From Candidatus Gugararchaeum adminiculabundum (GTDB taxonomy: Archaea > Micrarchaeota > Micrarchaeia > Burarchaeales > Gugararchaeaceae), in contig CABMDC010000012.1 in assembly GCA_902384795.1 (NCBI GenBank), positions 71,970 through 135,969 on the forward strand: a stretch of DNA of 64,000 nt. Reading direction: 5' to 3'. The notes beneath the pieces were generated by a model. It did not search any database, was not told the DNA's origin, and saw nothing but the letters and a program-made list of their open reading frames with translations. A program made the position numbers and the translations under genes. This document shows, piece by piece, positions 9,062 through 56,908 of this stretch (its first letter is position 1; each line of letters opens with the position of its first letter).

Positions 9062-9063
9062 AA

Positions 9064-22105: not shown

Positions 22106-22528
22106 CTACTGTTTCACTGCGCGTAGAACTTCTGTTTTTGTGACCTTGTTGTCAAAATGAGAATAGTCGCGGTAGTGCATGAAAGTAGTTACGGTGACAT
22201 TGTAGTCAGCAGGGTTGGTGGAAGTGTTGCTCCAGATTTCCACGTTCAAATTCTTGGATTCGTCCGGCTTGAACTGGCCGATGCGGAATTCTTTTCGGTG
22301 AGTTAAGCCGGTTTCATCGAACCCGAGCTGTTTTGGCAGATCGATGACTATGCTGGACATCACTGTCTGGCCCGAGATGTTGCGCACATAGGCGGTGAGA
22401 ACCGTCTTGTCCTTGCGGTTCGCGGCGAGCCTGAATGGCATTAAAGACAGGCGGATGACAAACGGGGTCTTGCCCGCAAGCTCCTTTTCATAGTCCTTCT
22501 TTCCGAGGATTGAATCTAGAAAGCCCAT
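22106..22528 (-). CDS. hypothetical protein
   Basis: ORF; ATG at 22528 preferred over GTG 22546. No family recognised. Confidence 0.4.
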   Translation of the reverse strand: MGFLDSILGKKDYEKELAGKTPFVIRLSLMPFRLAANRKDKTVLTAYVRNISGQTVMSSIVIDLPKQLGFDETGLTHRKEFRIGQFKPDESKNLNVEIWSNTSTNPADYNVTVTTFMHYRDYSHFDNKVTKTEVLRAVKQ

Positions 22529-22581
22529 GCTATAGAATCTGCTCACATAAGAATAAAAACCCTGCCAAAGTAACAGAAATC

Positions 22582-25047
22582 ATGTGCATTCTGAGAGTCG
22601 AGGGAAAGCGGGCCGTGATGGACTGCGCAGTTGACTCAATTGAAATGTTCACCAGCGACTGCGTGCACTCGCACCTCAAGGCGCTGACAACTCTTTCTGA
22701 TTTGGAGCTCAAAACCCTGCGCTACGAGGAGGAAATCATAGTCGAATACGGGGAGGAGAAAGCCAGCGTAATTTTGGAATACATCGACACCCTGAGGCAG
22801 ATTGAGGGAATTCTCCTCGATCCGACGACCTATGGAAGCACCCAGGACGAGGAATACGACAACAGGAAAAAGCTGCTCAAGCGGTTTTACGAGTATGCTT
22901 ACATGTCACCGCAGATGGCCTACCGGGTGCTCGCGGACTATAATGAGCCACAGCCCCAGCGAAGCCTTTACGTCGAAGGATGGCGGAAATTCAGGGCCTG
23001 GGTAAACGGCATTATGAAGAGCTACTCGGACACGCAGATGTACAAGATGTGCCTGAAGTTCGGGGATATCAGGAGCGTGTTCCTGGAACTCGCGAACCTG
23101 AGGAGCGCGCTTTTCCTGGAATCGCTTTTGCTAAAAGTGCCCGCGGACGCGAAGCCGCTCACAGGCAAGGATGCGGTCTATGATTTGGGTCATGGGATAA
23201 GGGCGAGAATTTACGAGCTGCCTGTGACCGAGACCTACCTTTACATTCACGAGAATCCAGAAGTCGACAACCTATCCCCGGAGCTGCAGAAAATCCTCAA
23301 GGAAGAAGTGGAAAAGGGGATGCAGGAGGCGCTGCCCGAGGGGGTGGATTTCGGCACCTATTTCGACGAAAGGACAAGGGATTTCAGGGCGCATTTCATT
23401 GACCGGGCTGAAAAGGAAAAGATAAAAATAACGCCCATGCAGGCGATGGCCATGGCACGGGAAGCATCTGCCTGGACAGTCGGCCTGGGAAGCCCGATAG
23501 AGAACATGTCCCTGGACAGGGCGAATATCACCGATGTTTATATTGACGGGGAGAACGCCCCGCTATATATAGAGCATATCAAGTTCGGCCTGTGCCACAC
23601 CTTGTGGAGATATAACAAGGCGATGATGCAGGGAGTGGTCAAGAATATCATTTCCACCACCAAGGGGACGAGGAAATTCGACCAGAATAACCCGGTTGTG
23701 GACGTGGTTCTCACAAGGCTGAATATGAGGTGCCACTTGCAACGCCCGCCAGCGACTTTCCGGGAAACCCAGGCTGCGCTGAGAATGACCAAGGAAACCC
23801 CGTTCACCTATGCGCAGTATTTGTACAACAAATCCATGAGCGCTTTCTCGGCGGGCTATGACGACTTGATGGTCACACTCGGGTGTTCCGAGGCAGTTTT
23901 GGGATTAAAGGGAGTCGGAAAAACAGCTTTTACCGCTGCGAAAGTTCTGGCAATCGGGCAGAAGAGAAGGATTCTGCCGATCCAGGATATTGAGGAAATT
24001 CCGACCATGGCTTACAGGAAAAGAGGGTTCCACATGGGCGCCATGAGGGTGCAATCCAGTGACAAGGAAGTTACCAGCAGCACTGAATTGGACCTGGTGG
24101 CCATGGCAAACGCGAGCCTGAGAATGGGAGATTCGTGCCTGATCATCAACGAAATCAGGTCACGCTTGGCAATCCAGGGGATTATCAATTTGCTGAACAC
24201 CCAGCCAGGGGTTTTCGTGCTCTACAATTTGCACGCAGAATCTTTGAGGGATGTGCAGGACAGGCTGGAACTGGTGTTCGGAGTCCCTTCTGCTTCCATG
24301 TTCACCACTGACAGGTATTCGTTCCTGAAGAAGGTGAGGTTCGGGAGAAAAGGAAGGGTCTACCGATTGCTCGGAAAGCAATATGAAACAGACCAGGAGC
24401 AGCACAAGTTTGCGGAGATATTCTCGTTCAAGAGAGGGGAATCGATTGATGACTCGAAATTGGAATGCGAATTTGTCGCAAACCCGGAGGCGAATCTCTG
24501 GGATTTGAGCGGAGTGAATATTGCGAAATTGGAAAAGGATTTGAAGGTCCATTACATTCCGCCCGCGCTTGCAAGAAGGGCGGAGGAGAGCGGCATAAAG
24601 CCGGAGCAATACATTGTGCAGGCTTTCATGAAAGGAAAAATGTACTCAACAATTACGAAGAAGGCGGTGGACAGCGGGAACAACGGTTTGCTGGAAATTG
24701 ACTTTGTGCTCAAATGCAACATGTACATGAACAAGCTTCTCAAGGAAAAGGAAAAACCGGATGGAAGCATAGATTTCGCGGAAATAGACAGGACCTGGGA
24801 AAAACAGTTCCCCTTGCTCGTGAGCGAATATGAGAGGGAAACACTGCAGGCAAAAGGCAAGCCTGAGCCCGAGAAGGCGAAGAAAGCGGCCGCTGAAGAG
24901 ATGAGCTCTGTGGAAGAGACAGGAGAGGGCGAAGAGGGAATACCTGATGCTGAAAGAGTGTCCGCTGGAACCGCCACAAGGAAACAGGAAAAGGAAAAAC
25001 CAAAAGCAACTGAAAAGGAGAAGCCTGCTGCTAAAAAGAAGAAATAA
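22582..25047 (+). CDS. divergent FlaI/VirB11/GspE-family secretion-type ATPase (oversized, about 820 aa)
   Basis: Walker A GLKGVGKTAF (GxxxxGKT), Asp box ILPIQDIEEI, Walker B-like LRMGDSCLIINEIRSRLA, then TQPGVFVLYNLHAESLRDVQDRL in place of the conserved His box. Long N-terminal extension and a Lys/Glu-rich C-terminal tail. Confidence 0.5.
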   Translation: MCILRVEGKRAVMDCAVDSIEMFTSDCVHSHLKALTTLSDLELKTLRYEEEIIVEYGEEKASVILEYIDTLRQIEGILLDPTTYGSTQDEEYDNRKKLLKRFYEYAYMSPQMAYRVLADYNEPQPQRSLYVEGWRKFRAWVNGIMKSYSDTQMYKMCLKFGDIRSVFLELANLRSALFLESLLLKVPADAKPLTGKDAVYDLGHGIRARIYELPVTETYLYIHENPEVDNLSPELQKILKEEVEKGMQEALPEGVDFGTYFDERTRDFRAHFIDRAEKEKIKITPMQAMAMAREASAWTVGLGSPIENMSLDRANITDVYIDGENAPLYIEHIKFGLCHTLWRYNKAMMQGVVKNIISTTKGTRKFDQNNPVVDVVLTRLNMRCHLQRPPATFRETQAALRMTKETPFTYAQYLYNKSMSAFSAGYDDLMVTLGCSEAVLGLKGVGKTAFTAAKVLAIGQKRRILPIQDIEEIPTMAYRKRGFHMGAMRVQSSDKEVTSSTELDLVAMANASLRMGDSCLIINEIRSRLAIQGIINLLNTQPGVFVLYNLHAESLRDVQDRLELVFGVPSASMFTTDRYSFLKKVRFGRKGRVYRLLGKQYETDQEQHKFAEIFSFKRGESIDDSKLECEFVANPEANLWDLSGVNIAKLEKDLKVHYIPPALARRAEESGIKPEQYIVQAFMKGKMYSTITKKAVDSGNNGLLEIDFVLKCNMYMNKLLKEKEKPDGSIDFAEIDRTWEKQFPLLVSEYERETLQAKGKPEPEKAKKAAAEEMSSVEETGEGEEGIPDAERVSAGTATRKQEKEKPKATEKEKPAAKKKK

Positions 25048-25077: not shown

Positions 25078-25692
25078 TTACCTGGGCCGTATTTGAGTCT
25101 CTACTTTTACCGGTCCCCTGTCAAAAGTTGGCTTCTTCGGGGCCGGGGCAGCCGGCTCGCTTGGCTTCTTTCCCCTTGAAAGGAAAATGATTATTTCCAT
25201 TACTGCGATTATTACGCCGATGTAGGGGTAGGTGATGCCGCCGACTAGGATGGGGATTAGGAACAGGCCGATTGGAATCAGGCGGTTCTGCGCGTTGCGT
25301 GAAATATAGGCGGACAGCCCGCTTGTGGCAAGCAGGAGAATCCAGACGAAGTAGCAGGTTAGCACATTGCCGCCCCGGATGTTTGCCAGGATGCCTGCGC
25401 ACCCGCTTTTCACTCCGAGAGTAAATGGCTGCGGGCCTGCGAGCGGAAGGACGCATTCGCTTGAATCCGCATAGCCCTCAACGCACTGGGCCGAAGAGAC
25501 CGCATTTTTGCTGACCAGTTCCTTATCAGTTGCTTCGGTTGCAAAAACACAAACACTCGCATTGTTGCAATAGCCTTCTGCGCAGTCGGCTGTCACTGAG
25601 CAGGACTGACCCACTTTCTTCAGCTGCTGAGCCGAAACTAGCGAAGCCAGGAGAATTGAAAGCAATGCGAACAGAAAAATTTTCTTCATCAT
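25078..25692 (-). CDS. Cys-rich secreted/membrane protein (signal peptide, knottin-like ectodomain, three or more TM helices, Pro-rich tail)
   Basis: MMKKIFLFALLSILLASLVSAQ signal. CSVTADCAEGYCNNASVCV and CVEGYADSSECV modules. TM helices CYFVWILLLATSGLSAYI, LIPIGLFLIPILVGGITYPYIGVIIAVMEIIIFL. Start is 2 nt after the giant gene stop. Confidence 0.5.
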   Translation of the reverse strand: MMKKIFLFALLSILLASLVSAQQLKKVGQSCSVTADCAEGYCNNASVCVFATEATDKELVSKNAVSSAQCVEGYADSSECVLPLAGPQPFTLGVKSGCAGILANIRGGNVLTCYFVWILLLATSGLSAYISRNAQNRLIPIGLFLIPILVGGITYPYIGVIIAVMEIIIFLSRGKKPSEPAAPAPKKPTFDRGPVKVETQIRPR

Positions 25693-25694: not shown

Positions 25695-28600
25695 TTACAA
25701 CAACTCCTTTAGGGGATTCTTCTCGCGCAATGCAAACGCGGCTATTTCAGTCAATGCCACTGCAACGCCGATGAATACTATGCTTACAAACCCTACGACC
25801 AGCGGGACTCCGAAGACTCCGAATGGGACTAGTTTGAATGGCTCTTTCCTTGCGGAATAGGCCGCTGTTGCGCTTAGCACAATCAATAGTGTCCAGAGTG
25901 AGGTGTTCAGCCAGTCGGGTATGGAAACCAGCTTTGAGCCCTTGGGCCCTTCTACGCATTTGTTTTCGGAACAGTATCCTATGCAGCAGTCCCCGGTTAT
26001 GGAGCATGATTTGCCTATTCCGCTGCATTGCCTGCAAACATTCTGGCTGCAGGCGGAACCCGCGCAGCACTGGCCGGATGTGTCACAGCCGCTTCCGATT
26101 GATTTGCATGGCTTTGGAATTTTGCAGAAACCGTTTTCACAGGAGCCTAGGCAGCAGTCGCTGTTCTGGGAGCAGGTGGAGCCAAGCGATTTCCCCAGGG
26201 GAATTAGCGTGACTGTGGCGGTATAGGCATTGTTGCTTCCTGCAAATGCAAGAGCCGAAGGAGCTGAAGTTGCTGAACCGAACCATAGGGCCTGAATCTT
26301 GGTGGCAGGGGCAGCAGATGAATCGGTTGGTGGAGCCTTGGTTGCAGCAGCACCAAACCACAGAGTCTGGAAGTTACTGGCTTCGGTGGATAAAACCTGA
26401 ATTGCTGCCACGCATTTTCCGTTAACTACACTTCCGAAGCAGCAGGTATTGTCATCGGTCATCTGTCCGCCAAGCTTTTCGCAGGTGGTGCACTTGCCAT
26501 CAACTAGCTGCCCAAAGCAGCAAGTGCCATCAACAGCTGGCGTTCCACCAAGCCTTTCACAGTTGGGAGCACATTTGTTGCTGCATTTTCCATTAAATAT
26601 TTGGCCGAAGCAGCAGGAACCTGATGGCAATGTTGCTCCGCCAAGCCCTTCGCAGGTGGTGCACTTGCCGTCGATTATGTTTCCAAAGCAGCAGGAATTG
26701 TCAGCCTGTGTTTTACCGCCGAGCTTTTCGCAGGTGGTGCACTTGCCATCAACTAGCTGCCCAAAGCAGCAGGAACCGTCATCCGTTGTCTTTGCGCCCA
26801 GGTCTTCACAAGTTGGGCATGGCGGGTTGGTGCAAGTTGGCTCGCATTTGCCGTTAACTACATTGGTAAAGCAGCAGGTGCCGTCTGCAAGAGGAACACC
26901 TCCTTTTTGTTCACATGTCTTGCAATCGCCAGTTGTGCAGCAGGTGCCGTCTGCAAGAGGAACACCTCCTTTTTGTTCGCATGTCTTGCAGCCTTCTCCT
27001 ATGCAGCAGGCGTCGTAGCCAATGAACTTGCCGTAGAGATCATAGGCACAATTCTTGCAGGTGCCGTCTGGAAGAGTGACTCCTCCGTTTTGTTCACAGT
27101 TACTGCACTTGCCATTGACTATCTTCCCGTGGCAGCAGGAGCCGTCTGGCATGGGCGTTCCGCCGAGCTTTTCGCAGTTGGTGCAAACACCGTTAACTAC
27201 CTTGTCAAAGCAGCAAGTTCCATCCGCAAGAGGAACTCCTCCTTTTTCTTCGCAGGTTGGGCATGGCGGGTCGGTGCACGAGGCGCATTGTCCATCCACT
27301 ATTTGAGTAAGACAACAGGAGCCGTCTGGCATAGTAACTCCTCCTTTGTCCTCACAGGTGCAGGGCGGGTTGGTGCAGCTTGGCTCGCATTGCCCGTTCA
27401 CTACTTGGGTTGCACAACAGGTGCCGTCGGGCATTGTTGTTTCGCCTGTGGGGCAGACCGACATGCATTTGCCGTCTATGACCGTGTTGGGCGGTGTGCA
27501 GCAGGAACCGTCGGACAGAAGTGTGCCGCCAGTTGAAACACAGTCTGGACACTCGATAGTCCCGCCGTCTACTTTGCACTTGTCACAACCATCTCCTACG
27601 CAACATGCATCGGATTTCAAGTAGTCTCCGCCAACGTCAGAGCTGGTGCAGTTTCTGCAGACTCCGTCTATGTATGCATCGCCTTTTGCAACGCATTTGC
27701 ATTCACCGGTTAAGCAGCAGGAACCGTCGGACATTGTTGTTCCGCCAAGTCCTTCACAAGTATCAACTATTACCGTAACTTTCTTTTTTTGTGGAATAGC
27801 GCAAGTAGTGGCCCCGCCATAGATATCTGAAGTGTCTGCCAGTGAAACCTGGGTTGCGGCGCTTAATGATAGAGTCTGGCGGCCACGGGTGGCCAACTCC
27901 AGGGACTTGTTGCACTCGCCATTGACTAGGTTTCCAAAGCAGCAGGAGCCATCTGGCGCTGTAACCGCACCTTTGTCCTCGCAGGTGTAGCTGCATGCAA
28001 TGGCAGCGTTGCAGTCAACATCAAAGCTGCTTACAAACTGCTTGCCTCCATCTTCGCAGGTGAAAACAACATCGGAGTTTTTAACGCAGCTAGGACAGGT
28101 GAAAACTGCAGTTGCAGTGAATGGAACTGCACCTTCTAATGGAGTTACGGTTAAGCTGCATCCCGATGGATTCGGGAGGTCGGTAACAGCAACGTTTTTT
28201 GCTTGCTCCGGAATTTCTTCAACAGTTGCCCTTGCTGCAAAAATGGTTTTTTCATTAACTTGTGGATAGGTGCATGTTCTGGATGCAGTAAATGTGTTGT
28301 CAAAGGAAACCGGAATGGCTGGGTCGCCTGGCATGCATGAGATTAGAGCAACGCCAATTGGCCTCTGGTCGCAGGTAACAATTATGTTTGAACTGAATTC
28401 GCCCACGTCCAGATCAGGACAGGCATAGGCATCACAAGTAAGATTCACCGGACATTCCGCTATCTCGAAATTAATGCTCTTTGAAGCATAGTGGGGTTTG
28501 GCCACCAGGGCGATATATTTGCCTGGCAAATCCGGAGTGAATGTTAAATTGCCATCACTGCCAGTTGTGAATGTGGAACCGAGGGAGGGAACAGGCGTTA

Positions 28601-31600
28601 GCGTGCCATCTGAATTTATGCGATAGAAGCTGGCAGTCACGTCTGGGATCGGAGTGCCGATGGGTTCTCTGGCAGTGAACAATGCAGATTTGCCGGCGCA
28701 TACTTTGTTGTCCAAGGTGAAATCCAATTTACAGGTGTTGCTTGCTTCACAGGTTTTGGGCGGATTGACAATGTCAATGGAGCAGCCGGTGAGTGTCTCC
28801 ACAGCGCTCACAATTGGATCGTACCCCGGCTTGCTGCATGAGCAATACCAGGAATGCGTATCATCGCTGAGGTTGCCCATGGTATAGGTATAACCAGTAT
28901 CGGTCTCGATTGTGCTGTGCGACGTTCCGTCCAGATAGACCGAACAGGTGGCGTAGGGCAAGTGATTTGGATATGAACCCGGTCCATATTTTACTCTGCC
29001 TTCAGCAGCAACGAAACGGGTCATGGAGAATGAAACATAAGAGGTATTTGTTCCGCCTGCTCCCATCATGAAAACCGTTGAGGAGGTAAAGTCAACACCT
29101 GTTATGAGCTGGTTAAGATGATTGCCAGGAGCGGAATAGGTGAGGTTGAGAACGTGAGTGTCTTCATTGTAATCAAAACTCAGATTGCCATCTTTGGCGG
29201 AATAGTTGCCGTAAGTTGGGCCAAAGGGCGTGAACTGGTTTGAACCGCTCGCATTGGTTACCATTATTATAAAGGTGACGGGTATGGCCGAATCGTTGAA
29301 GAAATAGACAGTGATTGCGTGGCCGGTCGTTGGGTCGGAAAGCATTAACGCCCCCATGGACCGATTTTGACCGTCAGGATTTGCGCGCAGGTCTGCGGAG
29401 ATATTGTCAAGCTCAAGGTGGTGGAGGTTTAATTGTGGCTGGAATGACACTAAGGCAAAGTCATTCTCTGTAGTCGAGGTCCCGTTGAAAACCAGGGCGC
29501 CATTTTGCTGGACCATCGTGACATTGGAACCTGCGCCGGCAACAGGAGACCAGTAATAGGGGTTCAGGTACGTGCTGTTGAAGTAATCTACATAAGCCTG
29601 CGGGTCAGATGACTTCTCCAAGAGCAGGATATTGCCGATTCCAAATTGCATCGAAGAACTGTTTGTTGCGCCGCTGATAATTTCGAATGTCGTGTTATCC
29701 GTGAAAGTCAACCCGCCAACGGTTAGGGCGTTTTGCGATAGAGAATCTGGATTCGTGTAGTTTATGACAAGCCAGTTCCGAACCCGGTCATAGGTGAGGG
29801 TGATTGTGTCGTTTACCGGAGCATAGGAGGTTAACTGGGCGTATGCCCCCTGGCCAAAGCCGTAGTATGAGCCGGTTGAGTTTACAACGTCAGAAATCAC
29901 CACAAATGGGATTGGCGGCATGCTGGTGGAATAATTTAAGGCAACAGGATATGAGTAACCGGGTGTAACATTGAAAGTGCTATTGAAAACCGAATCATTG
30001 AAAGTGAAATCATTGCCCACACCATGGCCGATTAAAGCGCTCTTGACAAATGCATAACAGGGAGCGTGAATCAAATTAGTGACATCGGAACAGTTCATAA
30101 GCCCGCAGGAGGAACTCCAGTAGACAGTGGTGTCGTCGAATGCAGGGAAGCCCGATGCATCTATGCAGGAAACATCATAACTCTCATCCGGATTTGCGCC
30201 TTGCAGCAATTCACCGTCATAACTTACTTCTTCTATGCTTGGGCTGGTTCCCATCCCAGTGGGGCAGGTGAGGAGGAACGTTACGCGGCCTGGGCCGGTA
30301 ATCCCATTGGTGCAGTCCCTGCCGTCTGTGGTAACAGGTGAAAACGAGGAGGAGTATCCAACGGATGCACCCGAATAGTTGATTAACATCACTGAAAGCT
30401 TGTTGCCATTTGACCCGTCATAGAGTTTCAACTGCACGTAGGAATAGTTTTCTGTGTCGGATGTGGCATTGAGCTGGATGGTAAGATTGCTTAGTTTTAT
30501 TATATAGGGCTGGAAGCTGTGATTGAATAATATGGAAGTGGAATCGCTCTCAGATGATGTCGAATCCACTGTTCCGTTGAAATAGAGGCGCCCGTCTTGA
30601 TAAATCGTGAGGTTGTTTCCCTGAACCGCGGGATCCCAAAGGTTTGGATTGATGGTAGTGCCTTCGAAATAATCTTGGTAGAGCGTGGACTGAACCGCGG
30701 CATGGTAATCGCAAGTAAATTCAGTCGTTGTGCTATTTCCTCCGTTATAGACCGTATCGCAATGAACGCCCATAAGAATTTCCGTGGTATTGGCAAAGTA
30801 CGGTTCAGCGCAGGTGTTTGTTTCGTCACAATAGCCAGTGCAGCAGGATTCGTTATCAGCGCACGGATCTGCAAGAGCCAGGCAATCGACACAGGTGTTG
30901 TTTAGGGGTTCACAGAGGTCTGAGCAGCAGGAAGAGTTGGTGGTGCAGGTGGTGCCATCCGGAATGCAGTCGCAAGTAAATGTGTCAAGGTTGCAAAAGT
31001 TAGAGCAGCATTGCGAGTTGTCATTGCACATTTCGCCTAGGGCGGTGCAATCGCAGATGCCGGTGAAAATGTTGCAGTACTCTGAGCAGCAGGATTCATT
31101 GGTAGTGCAGACAGTACCATCGGCATAGCAGTCACACTCACCTGAGGATAGATTGCAATAGCCCGTGCAGCAGTCGATGTTGCCGGTGCATGAATCTGTG
31201 GCAGGCAGACAGGAAACGCAGGTGCCGGACAGGGGATCGCAGAGGCCGGAGCAGCAGTCAGCGTTGCCGGTGCATGAATCTGCGAGCGCGAGGCAGGAAA
31301 CGCAGGTGTTGTTCAGTGGTTCGCAGAGGTTTGAGCAGCAATCTGTGTTGTTATCGCAGGGATTGGTGAGCGGCTGGCAGGCGCAAATGCCTCCGTCGCA
31401 GAAGTCAGTGCAGCAGGAAGCGTTGTCAGTGCAGGTGGTGCCAGTGGCATTGCATTGGCAGGTGTTTGTAGTGAGATTGCATGAACCAGAACAGCAGTCG
31501 AGATTGTCGATGCATCCGGCAGCAACTGGCAAACAGTCGACGCAGATGGCGGCGTAACATATGTCTGAACAGCAGGAGGCGTTTTCAGTGCATGAATCTG

Positions 31601-34600
31601 TGGCAGGCAAACAAGCGACACAGGTGCCGGAGATAGGATCGCATAGGCCAGAGCAGCAATCAGAGCCTGAAGTGCAGGCGGCGGTGTTAACTTTGCAGTC
31701 GCACTCGTTCGTTGCATTGCAATAATCAGTGCAGCACTCCGAATCTTGTGTGCAGGCTTCACCTATTCCATTGCAGTTGCCCTCTAATATTCCATATAGG
31801 GAGCCGGGAGTAAGGCCGTTGAGAGTAAGCGTGTTCGCCTGGGTATCGAGGGTTGCGTGCATCTCGACCCAGCCGCCAGCATCGTAGCGCCAAATATCAA
31901 AAGTGCCTTCTTTGTCAGCACTGGTGACTTCACTGTCATCCCAGGAGAAGACAACCGTGTCTATTGCGCCAGTGCCTGTTGCTGTGATGTTCACAAATTT
32001 CTGGCGGAAGGACACATAGTCAGTGGGCAGGGAAGTGCTGTTTGTCGCCCATTTGACCAGGTAACCATAGTTTGATTCGACATTATCGATTATCGAAATG
32101 CGCGTGAAGTTTGTGTAATTTCCATAGTAGGGATTGTCTATGTACATGTTTGAAAGCCGGATGTTGTCCATGGCACCGCCCGTTCGGACGATGTATAAAT
32201 CTCCTTGTGAATTGTTATAGAAATGGAAGTTCGAAGCATTCACATTGCTTGTGTCAAATAGCGCCATTCCGTAGCCAGTGTTGCTGAAGAGGGTGTTGTT
32301 GCTCATAATGAAACCAGAGCTGCTCATGATCCCTATGCCCTCAAGGCTGGTGCTGATGTTGTTTCCGGAGATTGTGGAATAGGAGGACAGGCTGCTTATG
32401 AAGCCGATGCCTGCGCCGGTCGAGCGAGTGATGGAATTATTGTAAATTGATAATTGACGGGAATCAATGGCGAAGACACCATAGCTGCTGTTTGAAATAT
32501 CGTTTCCGACTATGGTATTGTTATTCGGATTCGGGTGAACGGCGATGAGATAAATTGCAGAAGTGGTATTGGTGATATTGTTGTGTGTAATCAAGTCCAT
32601 CGGATGGTCCGCTATTATGTAAACGCCGGCCTGGAAACCGGTAATGTTGTTCCCGGATGCATATACTGAAGAATTGATATTTGCTATGGCAGCACCCGTT
32701 GCAGAGAGCGACCGGATGTCGTTATTGATCACGTTCATCTGGCCCCGCTGTACGAGGACAAACGGAACCTCATGACCGCTAAATGAAAGCCCGTTGAAAA
32801 ATATTGAATAGACGGACATGCCATAGTCTGCGGACACATTAATGGAATTGTCCTGGACAGTGAAGACGCCGGCGTAATCCAGAGCCAGCTTGCCATGGGA
32901 AACTATCTTGCTGTCGGTGATAGCTACAATAACGTTCATCAGCCCATAGAACCCTGCGTAGGAGTTGTTTCCGCCATTGCTATAGTAGATAGTGTTGTTC
33001 GAGAAAGTAGCGCGGGTGCTCCAGACATCGGGGCCAGGGGGCGTACCGCCCATGAACATGACGACAAGCAGATATCCCAGCCCTCCAGTCAGCGGATTTG
33101 CGGTTTCCATATACGCAGCATCGCTGGATGTGATGTTAAAGTAGCTGTCATAAACAGTCGCATTGCTGAGGTCTTCAAGTACGATTGTAGCTTTTTTCTC
33201 GAAATCACTGTCATGCAAAATAACCGTTGCATTGTAAACATGAATCGAAGCCGGCAGAGGACCGAGACTGCCACCCAGAAGCGGAGTCCCCAGGGAAGCG
33301 GAATTGTTTGTGTCAAAAAGAAATGAGACATTTGTAATTTGGTGGTTGTTGTAGAAGAGGATTCCATAGGCGCAGTCGTGGATTTCGTTTTGGTATGCTG
33401 CCTCGCTGTATAGCATATTGTCATCTACGCCCTCCCCTCCGTAGAAAAACCTGTCACTTGCCGTAGTATCAATGCCGTAGGTAAAGCTTGATTCATTGCA
33501 GCGTATGATAGCATTCTCCAGGCGGAGCGTGTTATTGGAATGTATCACCGCATAGTAGAGATCGTTCCGGGAGGTTATAGGGCTTATCACGCCATTGTAA
33601 AACTTAACCATATCACCGCCAGTCATGTCAATGGCGGTCATATTGGGGAACCGGCGCGATATGCTATCAAGCTGACAGCCGCCCACGCCTCCACAACCAA
33701 TACGGTTGTATTGTGGAGAGCCGATTGCGAGATTGATTTCAGAATCTATCAAAGTGAGGTTGGAATTAGCCATGAAAACGGCGAGGTATTCAGGGTAAAT
33801 AGTGTGACCGTATTCGTAGTTGAGGAAGTACGTTAGATGGGTGCCCCAGCTAAAACCATCGTAGAGATCGGTTCCGCCCGTAAAAGAGTGATAATAGGTA
33901 GGGAGTTGACGTGGAATGCCTATTGTAACGTCAGTTAAAATGGCTTCGGCTTTGTCCACGCTAAGCCCTATGGTTACGTTTGAATTAGATAGAGACAATG
34001 CGTTAGGCTGGCGGATTCCGGGGATATATGTTGAAGACTGCGGACCACTACCCGCCCCGTAGGCATTCTCCGCGATGTAAGCATTGCCGATGATTGAATT
34101 CGTGACTGTGACAAGTTGAGTGCCCCGCAACACACTGAAATCGCCAGCGATTTCTGAATTGTCAACAGTAATTGTTGTGGCAGGCGTTGCGCTGTTCCAG
34201 CAGGTTGTTGCCTCGAAACTGCCCAATATGCTGTCGGATACATCGGCGTCTGCATGGTCAACTGACACACCGCTCGCAGAGTCTCCGGTGTAGAGGGTCG
34301 CGCTTGGATTGACGTCTTCCACTGAGATGCTGGCTTTATTCCAGCCGTACAGGCAGCTGCGGGACTGCTCTCCGCAATTCGCGTTTCCAGTGGTGTTGAA
34401 AACAAGGGCATTGCAATTGGCCGTGTCTTGGGCATTTCGGGCGTAGTAAAGGCAGAAATTGCGTATAGCAGCATATGAATTGCTTAGGCACCAGTTGTAT
34501 TCGTCGTCACTGCGAGTGCCAGAAGTTAAACTGACACCGCTGGTTGTTTCTAGACCGGAAATGCTGGCGGACGTGCCTCCGCCTTCTTTGTCTTTTATGG

Positions 34601-35408
34601 TAACGCTAGAAGCGCGGCCAGTGACGTCCACTGTGTTAGCCCGCTGAATATTGATGGAAGTTTCGAGATTTGGGCCGTTATAGCTGGGGGTTGGGTCATA
34701 ATCAATATAGGTAATGTCAGGGGTCGTGGAACCGCCGGCATAGCAGTAGCCGCACTCGTTTGTTATTACATTATCACTGCCTGCGCTATTTACACTACTA
34801 CTGCCTTCTTCCCAATAGCTAACGACATTGCTCTGTGAGAAATTCATTGGGCCGCCGCCGCATATTACCTTGTCTCCTGGTGCGCTATTGGGAGTACAAG
34901 AGTCCGGATGAGGGCAATCGGAATAGGCGCACTGCCAATATTCGACTGAAGCGTTTCGACCGTAATACCCGTTGCAACTAGATAGAAATTGGTCTTCTGT
35001 TTCGCAACCTCTAATTGCGTCTCTCATCGTATTGTAACTGCTAGGAGAGTTAGTTTGATAACGCGACAGGGCGGTGCAATCGACTTGATAGTAAGTGTAA
35101 TGGCCACCCCAGCCATCAGGTACTTGGTAGGAGGAAGAAAAGGCGCTCGGCAGGGAGTAGTCGTTGGAACGTCCGCAGACACATCCGTAAGTTCCGCAAC
35201 TTTCTTCCACTTGCTTGTCAGCTGGCACAGTGCATGTATTGGCGCAACCACTAGAATGCCAGGAAGCGTAGGTAGAGGCGACACATCCACCTGAGGAATA
35301 GGGGTCGCTGGGAGTATAGTAAGTACATGTTGCAAAGGAAACGGGCGTCAAAGCTATGAGAATGAAAAAGAGGAAATACACTGCAGGCAGCAGCTTTTTT
35401 CCCATCAT
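25695..35408 (-). CDS. giant secreted cell-surface protein (3237 aa): signal peptide, beta-helix-like repeats, two Cys-rich tandem module arrays, C-terminal TM anchor
   Basis: Single uninterrupted 9714-nt ORF. N-terminus MMGKKLLPAVYFLFFILIALTPVSFA. PbH1-like repeats (NNITGFQAGVYII, NNITNTTSAIYLIA, GNDISNSSYGVFAI, YNNSITRSTGAGIGF...). About 12 modules of CxDNxDCCSGxCxxxxxTC. About 16 modules of GGxxxxDGSCCFGxxVxGKCTTCE. Dense NxT/S sequons. C-terminal helices LWTLLIVLSATAAY and FGVFGVPLVVGFVSIVFIGVAVALTEIAAFAL. Confidence 0.7.
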   Translation of the reverse strand: MMGKKLLPAVYFLFFILIALTPVSFATCTYYTPSDPYSSGGCVASTYASWHSSGCANTCTVPADKQVEESCGTYGCVCGRSNDYSLPSAFSSSYQVPDGWGGHYTYYQVDCTALSRYQTNSPSSYNTMRDAIRGCETEDQFLSSCNGYYGRNASVEYWQCAYSDCPHPDSCTPNSAPGDKVICGGGPMNFSQSNVVSYWEEGSSSVNSAGSDNVITNECGYCYAGGSTTPDITYIDYDPTPSYNGPNLETSINIQRANTVDVTGRASSVTIKDKEGGGTSASISGLETTSGVSLTSGTRSDDEYNWCLSNSYAAIRNFCLYYARNAQDTANCNALVFNTTGNANCGEQSRSCLYGWNKASISVEDVNPSATLYTGDSASGVSVDHADADVSDSILGSFEATTCWNSATPATTITVDNSEIAGDFSVLRGTQLVTVTNSIIGNAYIAENAYGAGSGPQSSTYIPGIRQPNALSLSNSNVTIGLSVDKAEAILTDVTIGIPRQLPTYYHSFTGGTDLYDGFSWGTHLTYFLNYEYGHTIYPEYLAVFMANSNLTLIDSEINLAIGSPQYNRIGCGGVGGCQLDSISRRFPNMTAIDMTGGDMVKFYNGVISPITSRNDLYYAVIHSNNTLRLENAIIRCNESSFTYGIDTTASDRFFYGGEGVDDNMLYSEAAYQNEIHDCAYGILFYNNHQITNVSFLFDTNNSASLGTPLLGGSLGPLPASIHVYNATVILHDSDFEKKATIVLEDLSNATVYDSYFNITSSDAAYMETANPLTGGLGYLLVVMFMGGTPPGPDVWSTRATFSNNTIYYSNGGNNSYAGFYGLMNVIVAITDSKIVSHGKLALDYAGVFTVQDNSINVSADYGMSVYSIFFNGLSFSGHEVPFVLVQRGQMNVINNDIRSLSATGAAIANINSSVYASGNNITGFQAGVYIIADHPMDLITHNNITNTTSAIYLIAVHPNPNNNTIVGNDISNSSYGVFAIDSRQLSIYNNSITRSTGAGIGFISSLSSYSTISGNNISTSLEGIGIMSSSGFIMSNNTLFSNTGYGMALFDTSNVNASNFHFYNNSQGDLYIVRTGGAMDNIRLSNMYIDNPYYGNYTNFTRISIIDNVESNYGYLVKWATNSTSLPTDYVSFRQKFVNITATGTGAIDTVVFSWDDSEVTSADKEGTFDIWRYDAGGWVEMHATLDTQANTLTLNGLTPGSLYGILEGNCNGIGEACTQDSECCTDYCNATNECDCKVNTAACTSGSDCCSGLCDPISGTCVACLPATDSCTENASCCSDICYAAICVDCLPVAAGCIDNLDCCSGSCNLTTNTCQCNATGTTCTDNASCCTDFCDGGICACQPLTNPCDNNTDCCSNLCEPLNNTCVSCLALADSCTGNADCCSGLCDPLSGTCVSCLPATDSCTGNIDCCTGYCNLSSGECDCYADGTVCTTNESCCSEYCNIFTGICDCTALGEMCNDNSQCCSNFCNLDTFTCDCIPDGTTCTTNSSCCSDLCEPLNNTCVDCLALADPCADNESCCTGYCDETNTCAEPYFANTTEILMGVHCDTVYNGGNSTTTEFTCDYHAAVQSTLYQDYFEGTTINPNLWDPAVQGNNLTIYQDGRLYFNGTVDSTSSESDSTSILFNHSFQPYIIKLSNLTIQLNATSDTENYSYVQLKLYDGSNGNKLSVMLINYSGASVGYSSSFSPVTTDGRDCTNGITGPGRVTFLLTCPTGMGTSPSIEEVSYDGELLQGANPDESYDVSCIDASGFPAFDDTTVYWSSSCGLMNCSDVTNLIHAPCYAFVKSALIGHGVGNDFTFNDSVFNSTFNVTPGYSYPVALNYSTSMPPIPFVVISDVVNSTGSYYGFGQGAYAQLTSYAPVNDTITLTYDRVRNWLVINYTNPDSLSQNALTVGGLTFTDNTTFEIISGATNSSSMQFGIGNILLLEKSSDPQAYVDYFNSTYLNPYYWSPVAGAGSNVTMVQQNGALVFNGTSTTENDFALVSFQPQLNLHHLELDNISADLRANPDGQNRSMGALMLSDPTTGHAITVYFFNDSAIPVTFIIMVTNASGSNQFTPFGPTYGNYSAKDGNLSFDYNEDTHVLNLTYSAPGNHLNQLITGVDFTSSTVFMMGAGGTNTSYVSFSMTRFVAAEGRVKYGPGSYPNHLPYATCSVYLDGTSHSTIETDTGYTYTMGNLSDDTHSWYCSCSKPGYDPIVSAVETLTGCSIDIVNPPKTCEASNTCKLDFTLDNKVCAGKSALFTAREPIGTPIPDVTASFYRINSDGTLTPVPSLGSTFTTGSDGNLTFTPDLPGKYIALVAKPHYASKSINFEIAECPVNLTCDAYACPDLDVGEFSSNIIVTCDQRPIGVALISCMPGDPAIPVSFDNTFTASRTCTYPQVNEKTIFAARATVEEIPEQAKNVAVTDLPNPSGCSLTVTPLEGAVPFTATAVFTCPSCVKNSDVVFTCEDGGKQFVSSFDVDCNAAIACSYTCEDKGAVTAPDGSCCFGNLVNGECNKSLELATRGRQTLSLSAATQVSLADTSDIYGGATTCAIPQKKKVTVIVDTCEGLGGTTMSDGSCCLTGECKCVAKGDAYIDGVCRNCTSSDVGGDYLKSDACCVGDGCDKCKVDGGTIECPDCVSTGGTLLSDGSCCTPPNTVIDGKCMSVCPTGETTMPDGTCCATQVVNGQCEPSCTNPPCTCEDKGGVTMPDGSCCLTQIVDGQCASCTDPPCPTCEEKGGVPLADGTCCFDKVVNGVCTNCEKLGGTPMPDGSCCHGKIVNGKCSNCEQNGGVTLPDGTCKNCAYDLYGKFIGYDACCIGEGCKTCEQKGGVPLADGTCCTTGDCKTCEQKGGVPLADGTCCFTNVVNGKCEPTCTNPPCPTCEDLGAKTTDDGSCCFGQLVDGKCTTCEKLGGKTQADNSCCFGNIIDGKCTTCEGLGGATLPSGSCCFGQIFNGKCSNKCAPNCERLGGTPAVDGTCCFGQLVDGKCTTCEKLGGQMTDDNTCCFGSVVNGKCVAAIQVLSTEASNFQTLWFGAAATKAPPTDSSAAPATKIQALWFGSATSAPSALAFAGSNNAYTATVTLIPLGKSLGSTCSQNSDCCLGSCENGFCKIPKPCKSIGSGCDTSGQCCAGSACSQNVCRQCSGIGKSCSITGDCCIGYCSENKCVEGPKGSKLVSIPDWLNTSLWTLLIVLSATAAYSARKEPFKLVPFGVFGVPLVVGFVSIVFIGVAVALTEIAAFALREKNPLKELL
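26400..27600 (-). repeat. intragenic tandem repeats (about 90-nt unit) encoding GGxxxxDGSCCFGxxVNGKC modules, some copies near-identical at DNA level
   Basis: For example, gccgagcttttcgcaggtggtgcacttgccatcaactagctgcccaaagcagca occurs at about 26466 and about 26728 almost identically. A 50-nt duplicate at about 26877 and 26942 encodes KTCEQKGGVPLADGTCC twice. Confidence 0.6.
30800..31790 (-). repeat. intragenic tandem repeats (about 99-nt unit) encoding CxDNxDCCSGxC knottin-like modules
   Basis: The protein shows 12 consecutive modules such as CTDNASCCTDFCDGGIC, CDNNTDCCSNLCEPLNNTC and CTGNADCCSGLCDPLSGTC. Antisense ORFs in the track are themselves repetitive. Confidence 0.6.
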
Positions 35409-35743
35409 GTGTATCTGCTCCTTAGCGCTCGATAATCAGGAGGCGCGGGCATCTTATCTGTAGGCCCTGTTTGGTTATAAGTAAGAACCTGTTGAATTGA
35501 TGCTTCCTGCTCTTGGATTAATTGCGGATTGGGTTGGGGCAATGGCAGAAGCGATGAAACAGCGGATTTTGTCCCTTGCCCTGCCTGCCCGGCACCGTCG
35601 TCGTCTGAAACAAGAGCATTGGCAGCAGGCGAAGATTGGGTGAAAGAAAAGGAGATGTATAACAGTGAGATTACGACGATGGAGACTAATAGGCAGATAA
35701 CTAATAGCGAACGGCTATAAGTAAGACCTTTGACCACACGCAT
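35405..35743 (-). CDS. small single-TM protein, first gene of the giant-protein operon
   Basis: TM helix SLLVICLLVSIVVISLLYISF followed by a Gln/Pro-rich tail. Its stop overlaps the giant gene start by 4 nt (ATGA). Confidence 0.45.
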   Translation of the reverse strand: MRVVKGLTYSRSLLVICLLVSIVVISLLYISFSFTQSSPAANALVSDDDGAGQAGQGTKSAVSSLLPLPQPNPQLIQEQEASIQQVLTYNQTGPTDKMPAPPDYRALRSRYT

Positions 35744-37392: not shown

Positions 37393-38340
37393 TTAGACGA
37401 GATTGAATGTCACTAGCACATTTGTCCAGTCAACTGAAGAGCGCACTGTCCCTTCCTGAAGCAGAATATAGGGATTGACTCTTGGCGCATCCAGCATGCC
37501 CACGCCCATATCTTTGGGAAGCCTTACTTCGAAATGGAACATTGGGCGGAGATTTTTTGCATTGCCGCTGTTTCCTGTTTTTTGCAATGGAGTGTCAACT
37601 GTGACTTCCTGCCCCTCGGCCGCCAGATTTTCGCCAGCATGCAGGTAGCGGGTGTGGAGGATTCCCTGGATGGGCCCCGCATCGGTGTAAACAGTGACCA
37701 CTGAATCATGATTTACATTTATGTAGTAGCCTGCGTCGGCATCAAAGTGTGCATGGCGCACTTCTCCATCGCGCGCTGCAAAAACTAAGTCGCCTTTTGT
37801 GAGCGCCCAGTCAACTCCTGAATGGGTTTTGCCCTTCCCGGCCCAGGGGCGCGGGCGGCCATAGGCGCCGGTGCGCGAGAGCGGCGGCTTGTCCATGTTC
37901 ATGTCAAAAATTCCTGCATTGAAAAAATCCGGGTTGAATCCACGCGCAGGGAGGATTAGCTTGGGATCTGAAACAATGGTCAAATTGCCGTCGCCTGTGA
38001 GCGAAACTTCACGCTTTGCCAGCATGGTGAACGCCTGGGCATATTCACTTTCTTGCAGGGAATGGCTCGAATCAAGAAGAGGATCGTTTATCATGGGCTG
38101 GTGCGATTTTTCAAGTGAAACCACGAATTTTATTTCAGGCTGTTTTGTTTTTTCGTTTATGCAGATTAGCTGGAGGATTTTTGCATCAGTGACTTCTGGA
38201 AATTCGTTTTTTTCATATTTGCCCATGAATAGGCGGCAAAACTCCAGGGAAGGCGCCGTGGAAAGAAGGGAAATGACATTGGCGCCCGGAGTTTTTCCGA
38301 GAAAATTTCTTGCTGGTGTTGGGTTTTTCAAAATTGCCAT
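37393..38340 (-). CDS. M23 family metallopeptidase (LytM/lysostaphin-like domain), no signal peptide evident
   Basis: HSGVDWA...GDLVFAARDGEV...AGYYINVNHD...TRYLHAGENL...QKTGNSGNA...HFEV reproduces the HxxxD and HxH M23 motif series. Confidence 0.65.
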   Translation of the reverse strand: MAILKNPTPARNFLGKTPGANVISLLSTAPSLEFCRLFMGKYEKNEFPEVTDAKILQLICINEKTKQPEIKFVVSLEKSHQPMINDPLLDSSHSLQESEYAQAFTMLAKREVSLTGDGNLTIVSDPKLILPARGFNPDFFNAGIFDMNMDKPPLSRTGAYGRPRPWAGKGKTHSGVDWALTKGDLVFAARDGEVRHAHFDADAGYYINVNHDSVVTVYTDAGPIQGILHTRYLHAGENLAAEGQEVTVDTPLQKTGNSGNAKNLRPMFHFEVRLPKDMGVGMLDAPRVNPYILLQEGTVRSSVDWTNVLVTFNLV

Positions 38341-43199: not shown

Positions 43200-43214
43200 T
43201 TGAGGGGTGAAGTT

Positions 43215-44225
43215 ATGCGCGCGAGGACTATCATAGTTGCTGTTTTACTTATTGGAGTGTTCCTAGTGGCATTGAGCTACATAGGTGGCATACACTTGAT
43301 TGGAGGGCCGTCCGCGCTCATGGCAGGGGAAAATGAGGGCATTGCGTGCAAAGGGGATGCGCCTGCGGATTTTTGCGATGGAAACGTGGCTAAATACAAT
43401 GCAACCTGCATAGGGGGCGAGTGGGTATTCCAGGAAGATAAATGCTTCATAAAATGCGAAAACGCCAGATGTGTTGCCTACAAATGCGCTACGGACTGCA
43501 GTGACGGAGACGACTCGACCGCTGATGTGTGCAATATTTTCAATGGAAAATGCGAGCATTATACAAAAGTGAGAGCTGAGGGGCAGGCAACTGAAGCCGC
43601 TGGCATAAAGGCGCCGGGTGGAGTGCTTATTTTCCAGCAGGGGGCCGACAATTCCCTGATTTATGGGGACTATTTTAGGCTTGAATTGCTGAAGGTTTAC
43701 AGGCATTTGGGAACAATCGCGGATGACACTGACTATTTTGTCATTGAACTCAGCGCGCAAAATCTGAACAACAGCGAACAGGAATTCAGGCCGCAGATGA
43801 CGCTCGCGGATGGTTCAGGAATTGAGCACCCGCAGCTGGCAAGGTGTGGGAAGGATGGAGGAGAGATTAAGACCGGAAACCTTGACCCCGGGGAAAAGGT
43901 CGCTGGAAAGGTCTGCTTTGGAAGCGATGTGCATAATTCGTTCCCGCTAAGGCTCTATGTGGGCAAATGGTATGACTACGTCCTCATAACAGATGATTTT
44001 GTGAGAATTGAAAGATCGAAAAGAACAACTACAGATCACCGCGGAGGAGGAAGCAGCGGGGCAAGCACGAGCACTGCGGATACAGGAGACACGTCTGATG
44101 CGGGGGAGAATTGGCTGCCGCCAGCGGATGATAGTGGCACCGATAATGGTGGCGGGGAAGTGGTGCCCATAACGCCCGAGCCTTCGGATTCCGAGGGTGA
44201 GCAGTGGCTTCCTGAAGCCGAGTGA
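43215..44225 (+). CDS. secreted/membrane-anchored Cys-rich protein with acidic Gly/Ser/Asp-rich tail
   Basis: N-terminal hydrophobic anchor IIVAVLLIGVFLVALSYIGG and eight or more Cys in CKGDAPADFCDGN...CIGGEWVFQEDKCFIKCENARCVAYKCATDCSDGD. Tail has repeated GENWLPPADD / GEQWLPEAE. SD GAGGGGTGA lies upstream. Confidence 0.5.
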   Translation: MRARTIIVAVLLIGVFLVALSYIGGIHLIGGPSALMAGENEGIACKGDAPADFCDGNVAKYNATCIGGEWVFQEDKCFIKCENARCVAYKCATDCSDGDDSTADVCNIFNGKCEHYTKVRAEGQATEAAGIKAPGGVLIFQQGADNSLIYGDYFRLELLKVYRHLGTIADDTDYFVIELSAQNLNNSEQEFRPQMTLADGSGIEHPQLARCGKDGGEIKTGNLDPGEKVAGKVCFGSDVHNSFPLRLYVGKWYDYVLITDDFVRIERSKRTTTDHRGGGSSGASTSTADTGDTSDAGENWLPPADDSGTDNGGGEVVPITPEPSDSEGEQWLPEAE

Positions 44226-56906: not shown

Positions 56907-56908
56907 CT

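Follow-up and report, generated by a model that had tools for sequence, protein, structure and literature searches.

Why would an archaeon with a small genome devote 9.7 kb to one protein, and what might that protein do? The question is raised by a stretch of 64,000 nucleotides from Candidatus Gugararchaeum adminiculabundum, analysed here as a whole and called the window. Positions 25695-35408 on its minus strand form a single uninterrupted open reading frame (ORF) with an ATG start and 3237 codons, equal to 15.2% of the window. An earlier note, made from the letters alone, had described one continuous 9.7-kb ORF covering about 15% of the window and encoding a giant secreted surface protein, likened to adhesin-like proteins of small-genome archaea and bacteria; the ORF list and the translation bear out the first part of that description. 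We propose that the product, hereafter the giant protein, is an adhesin-like, membrane-tethered, N-glycosylated surface fibril with a disulfide-braced stalk, and we put the probability of this reading at roughly 55%. We are far surer of the surface-fibril architecture than of the adhesion function, which we infer.

The source is a DPANN archaeon of the Micrarchaeota, represented by LFW-121_3, a metagenome-assembled genome (MAG; 1.47 Mb, 49.8% GC; PMC8561730), in agreement with the comparison to small-genome archaea in the earlier note. The MAG (ERS2655302) was recovered from mostly anoxic trench water at an Australian radioactive-waste site (LFLS) that is iron-rich and contaminated with radionuclides, and the giant protein is not discussed in the paper that describes the genome (PMC8561730). 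An entry identical to the 3237-aa protein is present in NCBI nr, from Candidatus Gugararchaeum adminiculabundum on a 268-kb contig, where its automatic name is only "Right handed beta helix region". The protein has a mass of ~340 kDa and its gene takes up ~0.7% of the 1.47-Mb genome.

An open frame of 3237 codons cannot have arisen by chance in DNA of 49% GC. The GC content of the gene resembles that of the remaining window, and its neighbours are ordinary archaeal genes (RadA, DRG GTPase, a PIN protein, P5C reductase, SHMT, MsrAB, the Lhr helicase and Nre). An assembly artefact, in which collapsed or mis-joined repeats had produced a chimera, would be in keeping with the origin of the sequence in a MAG (PMC8561730), with its two long repeat arrays and with the lack of a second independent copy in the databases searched, the GTDB representatives included. 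Set against this, the DNA of the repeat copies is only 60-87% identical (87% over 66 nt in the best tandem pair, mostly 60-80%), which makes collapse unlikely and leaves the units resolvable by short reads. No stop interrupts the 9.7 kb at any domain junction, the two arrays are kept apart by domains that do not repeat, and the gene is embedded in the 268-kb contig with a coherent operon structure. We regard the ORF as a genuine gene and give an artefact very little credence.

Architecture of the giant protein

The giant protein can be divided into eleven consecutive parts, listed here from the N- to the C-terminus.

35331-35408, minus strand: signal peptide, residues 1-26 (MMGKK...TPVSFA, followed by T), with a hydropathy of 2.23 over residues 1-31
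34209-35330, minus strand: N-terminal region, residues 27-400, with 22 Cys and a fold without match
32019-34208, minus strand: Asn/Ser/Thr-rich region, residues 401-1130, with a right-handed parallel beta-helix (part matched by Pfam: residues 898-1097, at 32118-32717)
31776-32018, minus strand: short beta-rich domain, residues 1131-1211, between the beta-helix and array 1 (sub-threshold fn3 match, E = 0.0056)
30807-31775, minus strand: array 1, 12 tandem six-Cys modules, residues 1212-1534 (alignment A1; Pfam UPF0506)
28959-30806, minus strand: two paralogous, sequon-rich domains, residues 1535-2150 (cores at residues 1577-1685 and 1939-2046)
27984-28958, minus strand: Cys-containing beta-rich region, residues 2151-2475 (sub-threshold CarboxypepD_reg match at residues ~2251-2316, E = 0.002)
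26406-27983, minus strand: array 2, 16 di-Cys modules with one degenerate unit and short inserts, residues 2476-3001 (alignment A2)
26193-26405, minus strand: Ala/Ser/Thr/Pro-rich linker, residues 3002-3072, with a duplicated xLWFGxA motif
25953-26192, minus strand: three membrane-proximal modules resembling inhibitor cystine knots (ICK), residues 3073-3152 (from the Cys pattern and AlphaFold)
25698-25952, minus strand: conserved anchor, residues 3153-3237, consisting of helix 1, a basic loop, helix 2 and a basic tail

No named family for the whole protein, no S-layer family and no sortase-type signal was matched in Pfam, NCBIfam or the PDB sequences, in keeping with the earlier note, which could not assign this combination of modules to a named family. 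A homology search of nr returned no full-length relative. An exhaustive phmmer search was made with the C-terminal third (residues 2150-3237) against 1.84e9 representative proteins at E<=1e-3, and all statements on rarity made below depend on that search. The word-indexed homology search sees little of this protein: with the full-length query, the 8000 saturated candidates contained no match but the query itself, array 2 retrieved nothing, itself included, and a profile of the anchor retrieved 2 of its own 14 members. Given that self-matches are missed in this way, the absence of matches there is weak evidence. Similarly, scans of the GTDB representatives with the giant protein, and of GTDB and JGI metagenomes with the pair of anchors found in this locus, returned no relatives; neither the source genome nor the known family members were retrieved, and these collections evidently lack that genome. 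Exact look-ups of the giant protein and of RadA in a contig index gave no match, for RadA probably owing to a different start codon.

The N-terminus, MMGKKLLPAVYFLFFILIALTPVSFA followed by T, has the make-up of a Sec-type signal peptide, in which a basic n-region precedes a hydrophobic core and positions -3 to -1 are S-F-A. By the -3/-1 rule, cleavage would occur after residue 26, consistent with the cleavable-looking signal peptide described previously. A GGAG Shine-Dalgarno-like motif precedes the start codon. Between the signal peptide and the C-terminal cassette lies an ectodomain of ~3100 residues, and the protein as a whole contains 220 Cys (6.8%). The many N-x-S/T sequons that had been remarked upon are a real excess, with 79 in the protein compared with 45.2 +/- 5.7 in shuffled sequences (n = 2000, maximum 66). 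They concentrate in the beta-helix region (28 observed, 15 expected), in array 1 (12 observed, 6 expected) and at residues 1534-2160, where the two middle domains hold 30 compared with 10.9 expected; the last ~750 residues show no enrichment. This distribution suggests that the giant protein is N-glycosylated.

At the other end of the protein, an AlphaFold model places helix 1 at residues 3165-3188, followed by the loop RKEPFK and the hydrophobic helix 2 at residues 3194-3230. The three further knottin-like modules and two C-terminal helices of the earlier note were thus recovered, with the second helix alone passing a strict hydropathy cut-off. The phmmer search retrieved 20 proteins, 17 of which match only residues ~3069-3234, that is, the knottin-like modules together with the two helices. 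Small members of this anchor family (173-236 aa) carry two four-Cys modules between a signal peptide and the anchor, and a few larger members (P0002, P0003 and P0005; two of 650 aa and 663 aa, and the truncated P0003 of at least 1203 aa) combine CarboxypepD_reg immunoglobulin (Ig)-like domains and six-Cys modules with the same anchor. An alignment of 14 members (A3) shows a helix 1 of 17-27 residues with the pattern W..LL..LS..A.Y.S, a six-residue loop resembling R.EKNKLVP with a net charge of +1 to +3 in all 14, and a helix 2 formed by an uncharged stretch of 32-38 residues with an invariant Pro, an invariant Gly and a single Glu. Lys or Arg follows helix 2 directly in 13 of the 14 members and one residue later in the remaining one, and some members carry acidic tails of 30-47 residues after this helix.

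Every element of this cassette is present both in the giant protein (residues 3073-3237) and in a 204-aa protein encoded directly downstream. Neither copy matches Pfam or NCBIfam, and no PGF motif was found in the cassette. All named sources of the family are Micrarchaeota or Micrarchaeia, and the combination of knottin-like modules and two helices is apparently a very rare family restricted to the Micrarchaeota. On the strength of the alignment we read the anchor as a conserved cassette, not as a transmembrane tail of the generic kind. Given the basic flanks on both sides of helix 2, the positive-inside rule predicts an N-out topology in which helix 1 spans the membrane and the C-terminus lies inside, and this suggests that helix 2 could be a hairpin or re-entrant element.

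The downstream gene is as follows.

25078-25692, minus strand: P0009, a 204-aa protein with a signal peptide, one or more four-Cys knottin-like modules and a two-helix anchor

Its start lies 2 nt past the stop codon of the giant gene, with an AAGGAG motif upstream, and its anchor is 39% identical to that of the giant protein over 62 aa (E = 2e-12). It was also retrieved by the C-terminus of the giant protein, and is listed by NCBI as "Uncharacterised protein" from the same organism. By position and similarity, P0009 is a paralogue of the giant's anchor, and its gene is translationally coupled to the giant gene.

The largest other member of the anchor family (P0003, at least 1203 aa and truncated at the end of its contig, at L006 1-3613 in the Micrarchaeota MAG GCA_035427805.1) is perhaps another very large protein. 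A 374-aa gene downstream of it (L006 4415-5539) has a faint Thioredoxin_3 match and is a candidate disulfide-forming partner.

The 12 CxDNxDCCSGxC modules of the earlier note were counted again in array 1, where residues 1212-1534 hold exactly 12 modules of the form C-x6-C-x5-CC-x3-C-x4-6-C, each of 25-28 aa and joined by linkers of 0-2 residues; their DNA is 60-81% identical. The membrane-proximal set at residues 3073-3152 adds two complete six-Cys modules and one, the first, without Cys1. The 12 and the two complete modules all have the pattern C-x6-C-x5-CC-x3(4)-C-x4-6-C and fit the ICK framework, taken here as about C-x3-7-C-x3-8-CC-x0-5-C-x3-13-C. A profile built from 16 six-Cys modules and run against all PDB sequences matched ICK toxins almost exclusively, the best being heteropodatoxin-2 (E = 4e-4) and omega-conotoxin MVIIC (2.5e-3), with Aca toxin and omega-atracotoxin also among them, and several of the alignments, to omega-conotoxins and spider toxins, span all six Cys. 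In Pfam, the array 1 segment matched UPF0506 (PF11703) in five stretches at 30.4 bits compared with a cut-off of 23.2, a match that covers the Cys-pattern half of the model only and is not reported for the whole protein at E<=0.01. Weaker Pfam matches of the array were to Toxin_12, conotoxin and Dickkopf_N.

Loss of cysteines follows the same logic. Across the related proteins, 29 modules have all six Cys and 16 modules, in eight proteins, have lost both Cys1 and Cys4, the pattern to be expected of a disulfide between the two, as in knottins. The bonds of a knottin run I-IV, II-V and III-VI, the III-VI bond being threaded through the ring, and the joint loss would fit the first of these. We also modelled residues 3066-3237 with AlphaFold2, using a shallow pseudo-alignment of internal repeats and two family members. 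Each module was predicted as a short turn and a beta-hairpin, with a predicted local distance difference test (pLDDT) score of 73-80. A Foldseek search of this model against the PDB gave 41 matches, almost all to small disulfide-rich mini-proteins and mostly to cystine-knot toxins or inhibitors, including SGTx1, hanatoxin, Pn3a, conotoxin GXIA, squash trypsin inhibitors and the double-knot toxin, and also Dickkopf. The typical root-mean-square deviation was 0.9-1.1 A (~0.9 A over 29 columns for SGTx1 and hanatoxin), with a TM(target) of ~0.7. Together these data support the label knottin-like that had been given to the modules: the ICK framework of cysteines is observed. Homology and convergence with ICK toxins cannot be separated here, and the disulfide knot is a prediction.

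Array 2 is of a different kind. The earlier count of about 16 GGxxxxDGSCCFGxxVNGKC modules agrees with the 16 modules and one degenerate unit found here, which have the consensus CExLGGxxxxDGSCCFGxxVxGKC, a length of ~26 aa and the spacing C-x12-CC-x8-C, with some shortened variants. The array has no Pfam match at E<=10, PF24748 included, and no match among PDB sequences. In the exhaustive phmmer search only two other proteins match it. One, P0010 (175 aa), is a clear member of the Pfam family Galaxin_repeat (E = 1.5e-17) and aligns in register with array 2 at 36% identity over 118 aa. The other, P0004, a bacterial-like repeat protein, lies on a high-GC contig in an uninformative genomic context, and its CPEGAVRMPDGQCCPRQDVHDGKC repeats are 40% identical to array 2. 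An AlphaFold model made from a shallow pseudo-alignment of the internal repeats shows two beta-hairpins per module (pLDDT 69), for which Foldseek found no significant fold match among solved structures. From this similarity array 2 is best described as a galaxin-like di-Cys beta-hairpin repeat, without membership in PF24748.

Because array 2 has the same 12-residue spacing from Cys1 to the CC pair, we considered a knottin that had lost Cys2 and Cys5. This origin is not relied on, since hhalign gave a probability of 4%, the Foldseek matches were not knottins and the similarity to galaxin is stronger.

The beta-helix repeats that the earlier note had described are supported in part. Residues 898-1097 are confirmed by Pfam, with Beta_helix (PF13229) at residues 959-1097 (E = 2e-12, 47.5 bits compared with a gathering cut-off of 25.9) and NosD (PF05048) at residues 898-1076 (E = 1.3e-7, 31.8 bits compared with 23.6); residues ~400-900 lack Pfam support. 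The region before the beta-helix (residues 27-400) is the membrane-distal tip. For residues 1131-1211, the fn3 assignment is tentative. The two middle domains are 34% identical over 111 aa (E = 1.8e-13). Residues 2151-2475 are probably Ig-like (carboxypeptidase-regulatory-like) domains, and CarboxypepD_reg is matched above threshold in the anchor-family member P0002 (E = 3.2e-8).

An impression that the middle domains start like a lectin of the ConA or glycoside hydrolase (GH) 16 type was not substantiated by the Pfam and PDB searches.

A proposed tethered surface fibril and its alternatives

These data allow us to suggest how the giant protein could be built into the cell envelope. It would be exported by Sec and then held in the cytoplasmic membrane by its C-terminal cassette, with the basic loop and the basic tail both cytoplasmic, in which case helix 2 would form a hairpin or a re-entrant segment. 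The ~750 membrane-proximal residues, comprising the 16 galaxin-like modules, the linker and the three knottin-like modules, would act as compact, disulfide-braced, protease-resistant spacers. Further out, the 12-module knottin array would also be a spacer. Such spacers would push the distal half through and past the S-layer, a structure that Micrarchaeota possess (10.1101/2021.04.28.441871). The distal half, made up of the two sequon-rich paralogous domains, the heavily N-glycosylated beta-helix and the Cys-containing tip, would then be the business end and would bind a ligand, carbohydrate or protein, carried by another cell or by a surface. Giant membrane-anchored surface proteins of DPANN archaea are documented and have been proposed to bind hosts (PMC10266531). 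The C-terminus of the giant protein would probably stem from duplication of the small anchor gene and its fusion to a modular ectodomain, and the giant protein and P0009 may co-assemble via their conserved helices.

Several points weigh against this reading. The protein is known here from its sequence and its expression is putative, and the genome paper suggests that the organism is perhaps host-independent (PMC8561730), which would weaken a role in host attachment and leave adhesion to a surface or substrate unaffected. No adhesion or ligand-binding domain was identified in the domain searches of the giant protein. The presumed distal half is in large part without relatives: residues 27-400 match nothing in Pfam, NCBIfam or the PDB sequences, residues ~400-900 nothing in Pfam, even as separate segments, and the middle domains at residues 1535-2150 nothing in Pfam or the PDB. 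Regarding the stalk, the Foldseek E-values for knottins are 0.1-10 and not significant, the modules being tiny, AlphaFold may be biased towards known knottins, and extracellular disulfides in mostly anoxic trench water are predicted and assumed. Helix 2 is modelled by AlphaFold as one continuous helix of 37 residues, a poor fit to a hairpin. Lastly, the small anchor gene stands alone among housekeeping genes in four relatives, so that co-assembly with a giant protein would not be a general property of the family. The same solitary position implies that the coupled tandem arrangement with the giant gene is specific to this genome, in line with a giant gene whose 3' end came from a duplication of the small one.

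Two alternatives would keep the protein at the surface and change its task. It might be a cell-tethered polysaccharide-degrading enzyme, with the beta-helix as lyase or hydrolase and the rest as spacer, serving sugar harvest or the breaching of a partner's envelope; such an activity would be compatible with adhesion. Pectate lyases, GH28 enzymes and phage tailspike depolymerases have the right-handed beta-helix fold that the Beta_helix and NosD models detect here, and a gene for an M23 peptidase lies 2 kb upstream on the same strand. We nevertheless consider an enzyme unlikely, given that no catalytic family (pectate lyase, GH28, GH55 and others) was matched by the whole protein at E<=0.01 or by its segments at E<=10, that the protein has no sequence relative in the PDB, and that many beta-helix surface proteins are non-catalytic adhesins. 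The protein might otherwise be structural, either an S-layer subunit or a membrane-anchored stalk of the S-layer, and not an adhesin. The C-terminal membrane anchor, the many sequons and the beta-helix/NosD-like region would suit such a role, as would the conservation of the small anchor protein among housekeeping genes in relatives, as might be expected of a basic envelope component. The S-layer protein of Ca. Micrarchaeum harzensis is glycosylated and is reported to have segments resembling copper-binding proteins and glycoside hydrolases, and its authors suggested that a second, membrane-anchored "stalk" protein might hold the S-layer (10.1101/2021.04.28.441871). Assignment of the whole protein to a well-described S-layer family, which the earlier note had raised as a competing outcome, was however not obtained, with no match to such a family in Pfam or NCBIfam. 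Moreover, S-layer proteins typically contain almost no sulfur amino acids and have masses of 40-200 kDa (10.1101/2021.04.28.441871), compared with 6.8% Cys and ~340 kDa for the giant protein, and neither the nr search nor phmmer of residues 2150-3237 found a full-length homologue in other Micrarchaeota, in which the S-layer protein is reported to be conserved. A structural role of this type appears distinctly improbable to us.

The other two alternatives concern the cysteine arrays. Instead of disulfide modules, these could be thiol-based metal or redox sites that bind iron, copper or radionuclides. The 220 Cys, the match to NosD ("periplasmic copper-binding protein"), the iron-rich and radionuclide-contaminated source site (PMC8561730) and the partial Fer4 matches of the array-2-like protein P0004 all point in that direction. 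In contrast, the joint loss of Cys1 and Cys4 in 16 modules is what a disulfide pair, rather than a multi-Cys metal site, would lead one to expect. The spacing agrees with that of disulfide-knotted mini-proteins, as does the predicted fold, no Fe-S or metallothionein family in Pfam is matched by either array of the giant protein, and the NosD family is named after a carrier of the fold and matches in the beta-helix, not in the Cys arrays. Metal binding is for these reasons very unlikely in our view. A further reading accepts the knottin-like fold and makes the arrays functional binding units, a 12-plus-3-valent brush of toxin-type cystine knots that grips or blocks membrane proteins of a partner cell or its S-layer, with the cassette shared with P0009 as a previously unrecognised anchoring or assembly system specific to the Micrarchaeota. 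If this were true, cystine-knot mini-proteins, known as eukaryotic toxins and inhibitors, would enter prokaryotic cell-cell interaction; we think it a long shot. The surface fibril, with its arrays as spacers, remains the reading that we favour.

Operon and genomic surroundings

Upstream, the giant gene overlaps a short ORF.

35405-35743, minus strand: 112-aa ORF with a single hydrophobic helix at the N-terminus, a tail rich in Pro and Gln, and a stop codon that overlaps the start of the giant gene (ATGA)

The 112-aa ORF has no Pfam or NCBIfam match. A TATA-like element, TTTAAATA, lies ~25-30 nt upstream of its ATG, and this putative ORF is possibly the leaderless first gene of a three-gene operon that continues with the giant gene and P0009.

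On the other side, an 845-aa ORF (22510-25047, plus strand) runs towards the giant operon in convergent orientation and stops ~30 nt short of it. It has weak NCBIfam matches to secretion ATPases of the TadA/FlaI/VirB11 type (E = 2e-14 to 1e-9), far below the NCBIfam cut-offs, and no Pfam match. The M23 peptidase-domain protein (315 aa, 37393-38340, minus strand; E = 4.9e-12) is encoded 2 kb upstream of the operon. Enzymes of the M23 type cleave peptidoglycan cross-links in bacteria and are odd in an archaeon, and this protein is possibly relevant to interaction with bacterial neighbours. A 341-aa ORF further away (43200-44225, plus strand) has an N-terminal hydrophobic segment, then a stretch with many Cys (CKGD..C..C..C..CENARC..C..C), and ends in an acidic tail of Gly, Ser and Asp; Pfam gives no match for it, and the product is possibly another secreted Cys-rich protein.

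The block of genes for LemA, an M48 peptidase and D-aminoacyl-tRNA deacylase at 56133-59251 of the window is syntenic with positions 7667-10600 of a related DPANN contig (L001). On that contig the small anchor protein P0007 adjoins the deacylase; the corresponding site in the window has no such gene, and the paralogue is instead found behind the giant gene.

Two genes for tRNA-Val, with the anticodons CAC and TAC, lie 62 nt apart on the plus strand at 6469-6542 and 6604-6677, the second overlapping a listed ORF (6622-7428, minus strand) and the start region of another (6752-9061, plus strand). Over the whole window, the GC skew of the plus strand is positive in nearly every 2-kb bin irrespective of gene orientation, and the AT skew has strongly positive values at 12-22 kb and 40-42 kb. 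A single replichore would fit this pattern, as would strong purine loading in genes rich in Lys and Glu.

Relation to known surface proteins and repeats

The resemblance to giant surface proteins of DPANN archaea that the earlier note had pointed out holds at the level of architecture, with a signal peptide, a repetitive, sequon-rich ectodomain and a C-terminal anchor (PMC10266531). The closest documented systems are the nanohaloarchaeal giants ("SPEARE", SVXNc_0300/BNXNv_0298; PMC10266531), which, like the protein described here, come from small-genome DPANN archaea, have a Sec signal peptide and a very long, repetitive ectodomain with a membrane anchor close to the C-terminus, use up much of the coding capacity and presumably act at the cell surface. 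They are, however, 2.7-2.9 times longer, are made up largely of ~75 Ig-like domains and have, after the transmembrane (TM) segment, a VirB4/TraG-like ATPase domain in the cytoplasm (PMC10266531), whereas the present protein has no ATPase domain, ends 10 residues past its anchor and contains a beta-helix and two kinds of Cys-rich mini-modules. No sequence similarity between the two was detected in the nr search or by phmmer of residues 2150-3237. A gene resembling a secretion ATPase adjoins this locus too, but on the opposite strand and from a different family (FlaI/VirB11-like) than the nanohaloarchaeal VirB4 type. DPANN giant surface proteins are thought to mediate contact with partners, and almost nothing is known of them in Micrarchaeota. 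The present protein also bears on the "self-supporting" name of Ca. Gugararchaeum, since an adhesin-like fibril of 340 kDa suggests that contact with something matters to this organism.

A 1306-aa protein of a Micrarchaeia MAG (GCA_038870455.1; L008 1-3922) combines Beta_helix with DUF87/HerA_C ATPase domains, a pairing that recalls the nanohaloarchaeal giants with their VirB4-like ATPases.

With adhesin-like and NosD-like beta-helix surface proteins the giant protein shares the Pfam matches at residues 898-1097 and Asn-rich, sequon-rich repeats. It differs from them in that the verified beta-helix makes up <10% of its length, and in the searches made neither these Cys arrays nor this anchor turned up in another beta-helix protein.

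The six-Cys modules share the C-C-CC-C-C framework and the loop lengths with the ICK toxins (Toxin_12, conotoxins, the double-knot toxin DkTx) and with nematode UPF0506. Known ICK peptides are free, secreted eukaryotic effectors of one or two domains; the known tandem cases are animal toxins with two domains, and few cysteine-rich repeat proteins have an ICK fold (PMC6262176). Here, in contrast, 12 and three such modules are fused head to tail, with linkers of 0-2 residues, within an archaeal membrane protein. A limited literature search found no report of archaeal arrays of the ICK type. A tandem knottin array in an archaeon would extend the knottin scaffold to prokaryotic surface architecture, in the form of concatenated and probably hyperstable mini-domains.

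Galaxin-like repeats (PF24748) are di-cysteine repeats first known from galaxin, a protein of the coral skeletal matrix. Like array 2, they have a period of ~26 residues, the motif xCCxGxLVxG...C..LGx......CC and predicted all-beta hairpins. Array 2 is unlike galaxin in its split middle Cys pair (C-x2-C instead of CC) and in belonging to an archaeal, membrane-anchored protein, and it would place a galaxin-like di-Cys repeat outside eukaryotes.

The anchor cassette, a potential marker by which to find the Micrarchaeota surface proteome in metagenomic data, can be compared with the PGF-CTERM/archaeosortase signal and with the single TM anchors of S-layer glycoproteins. All of these are hydrophobic C-terminal segments with basic residues behind them, and all fix a glycosylated ectodomain to the membrane. 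In PGF-CTERM signals, which NCBIfam models recognise, the PGF motif precedes a single TM helix and a basic cluster at the very C-terminus. Unlike PGF-CTERM, the cassette has two helices, a conserved basic loop and a helix 2 of ~35 residues with an invariant Pro, Gly and Glu. The giant protein belongs to a kind that is already known, the giant, anchored and repetitive surface protein of DPANN archaea, and is unusual in its parts: a 12+3 array of ICK-like modules, galaxin-like repeats and a rare, lineage-restricted anchor cassette.

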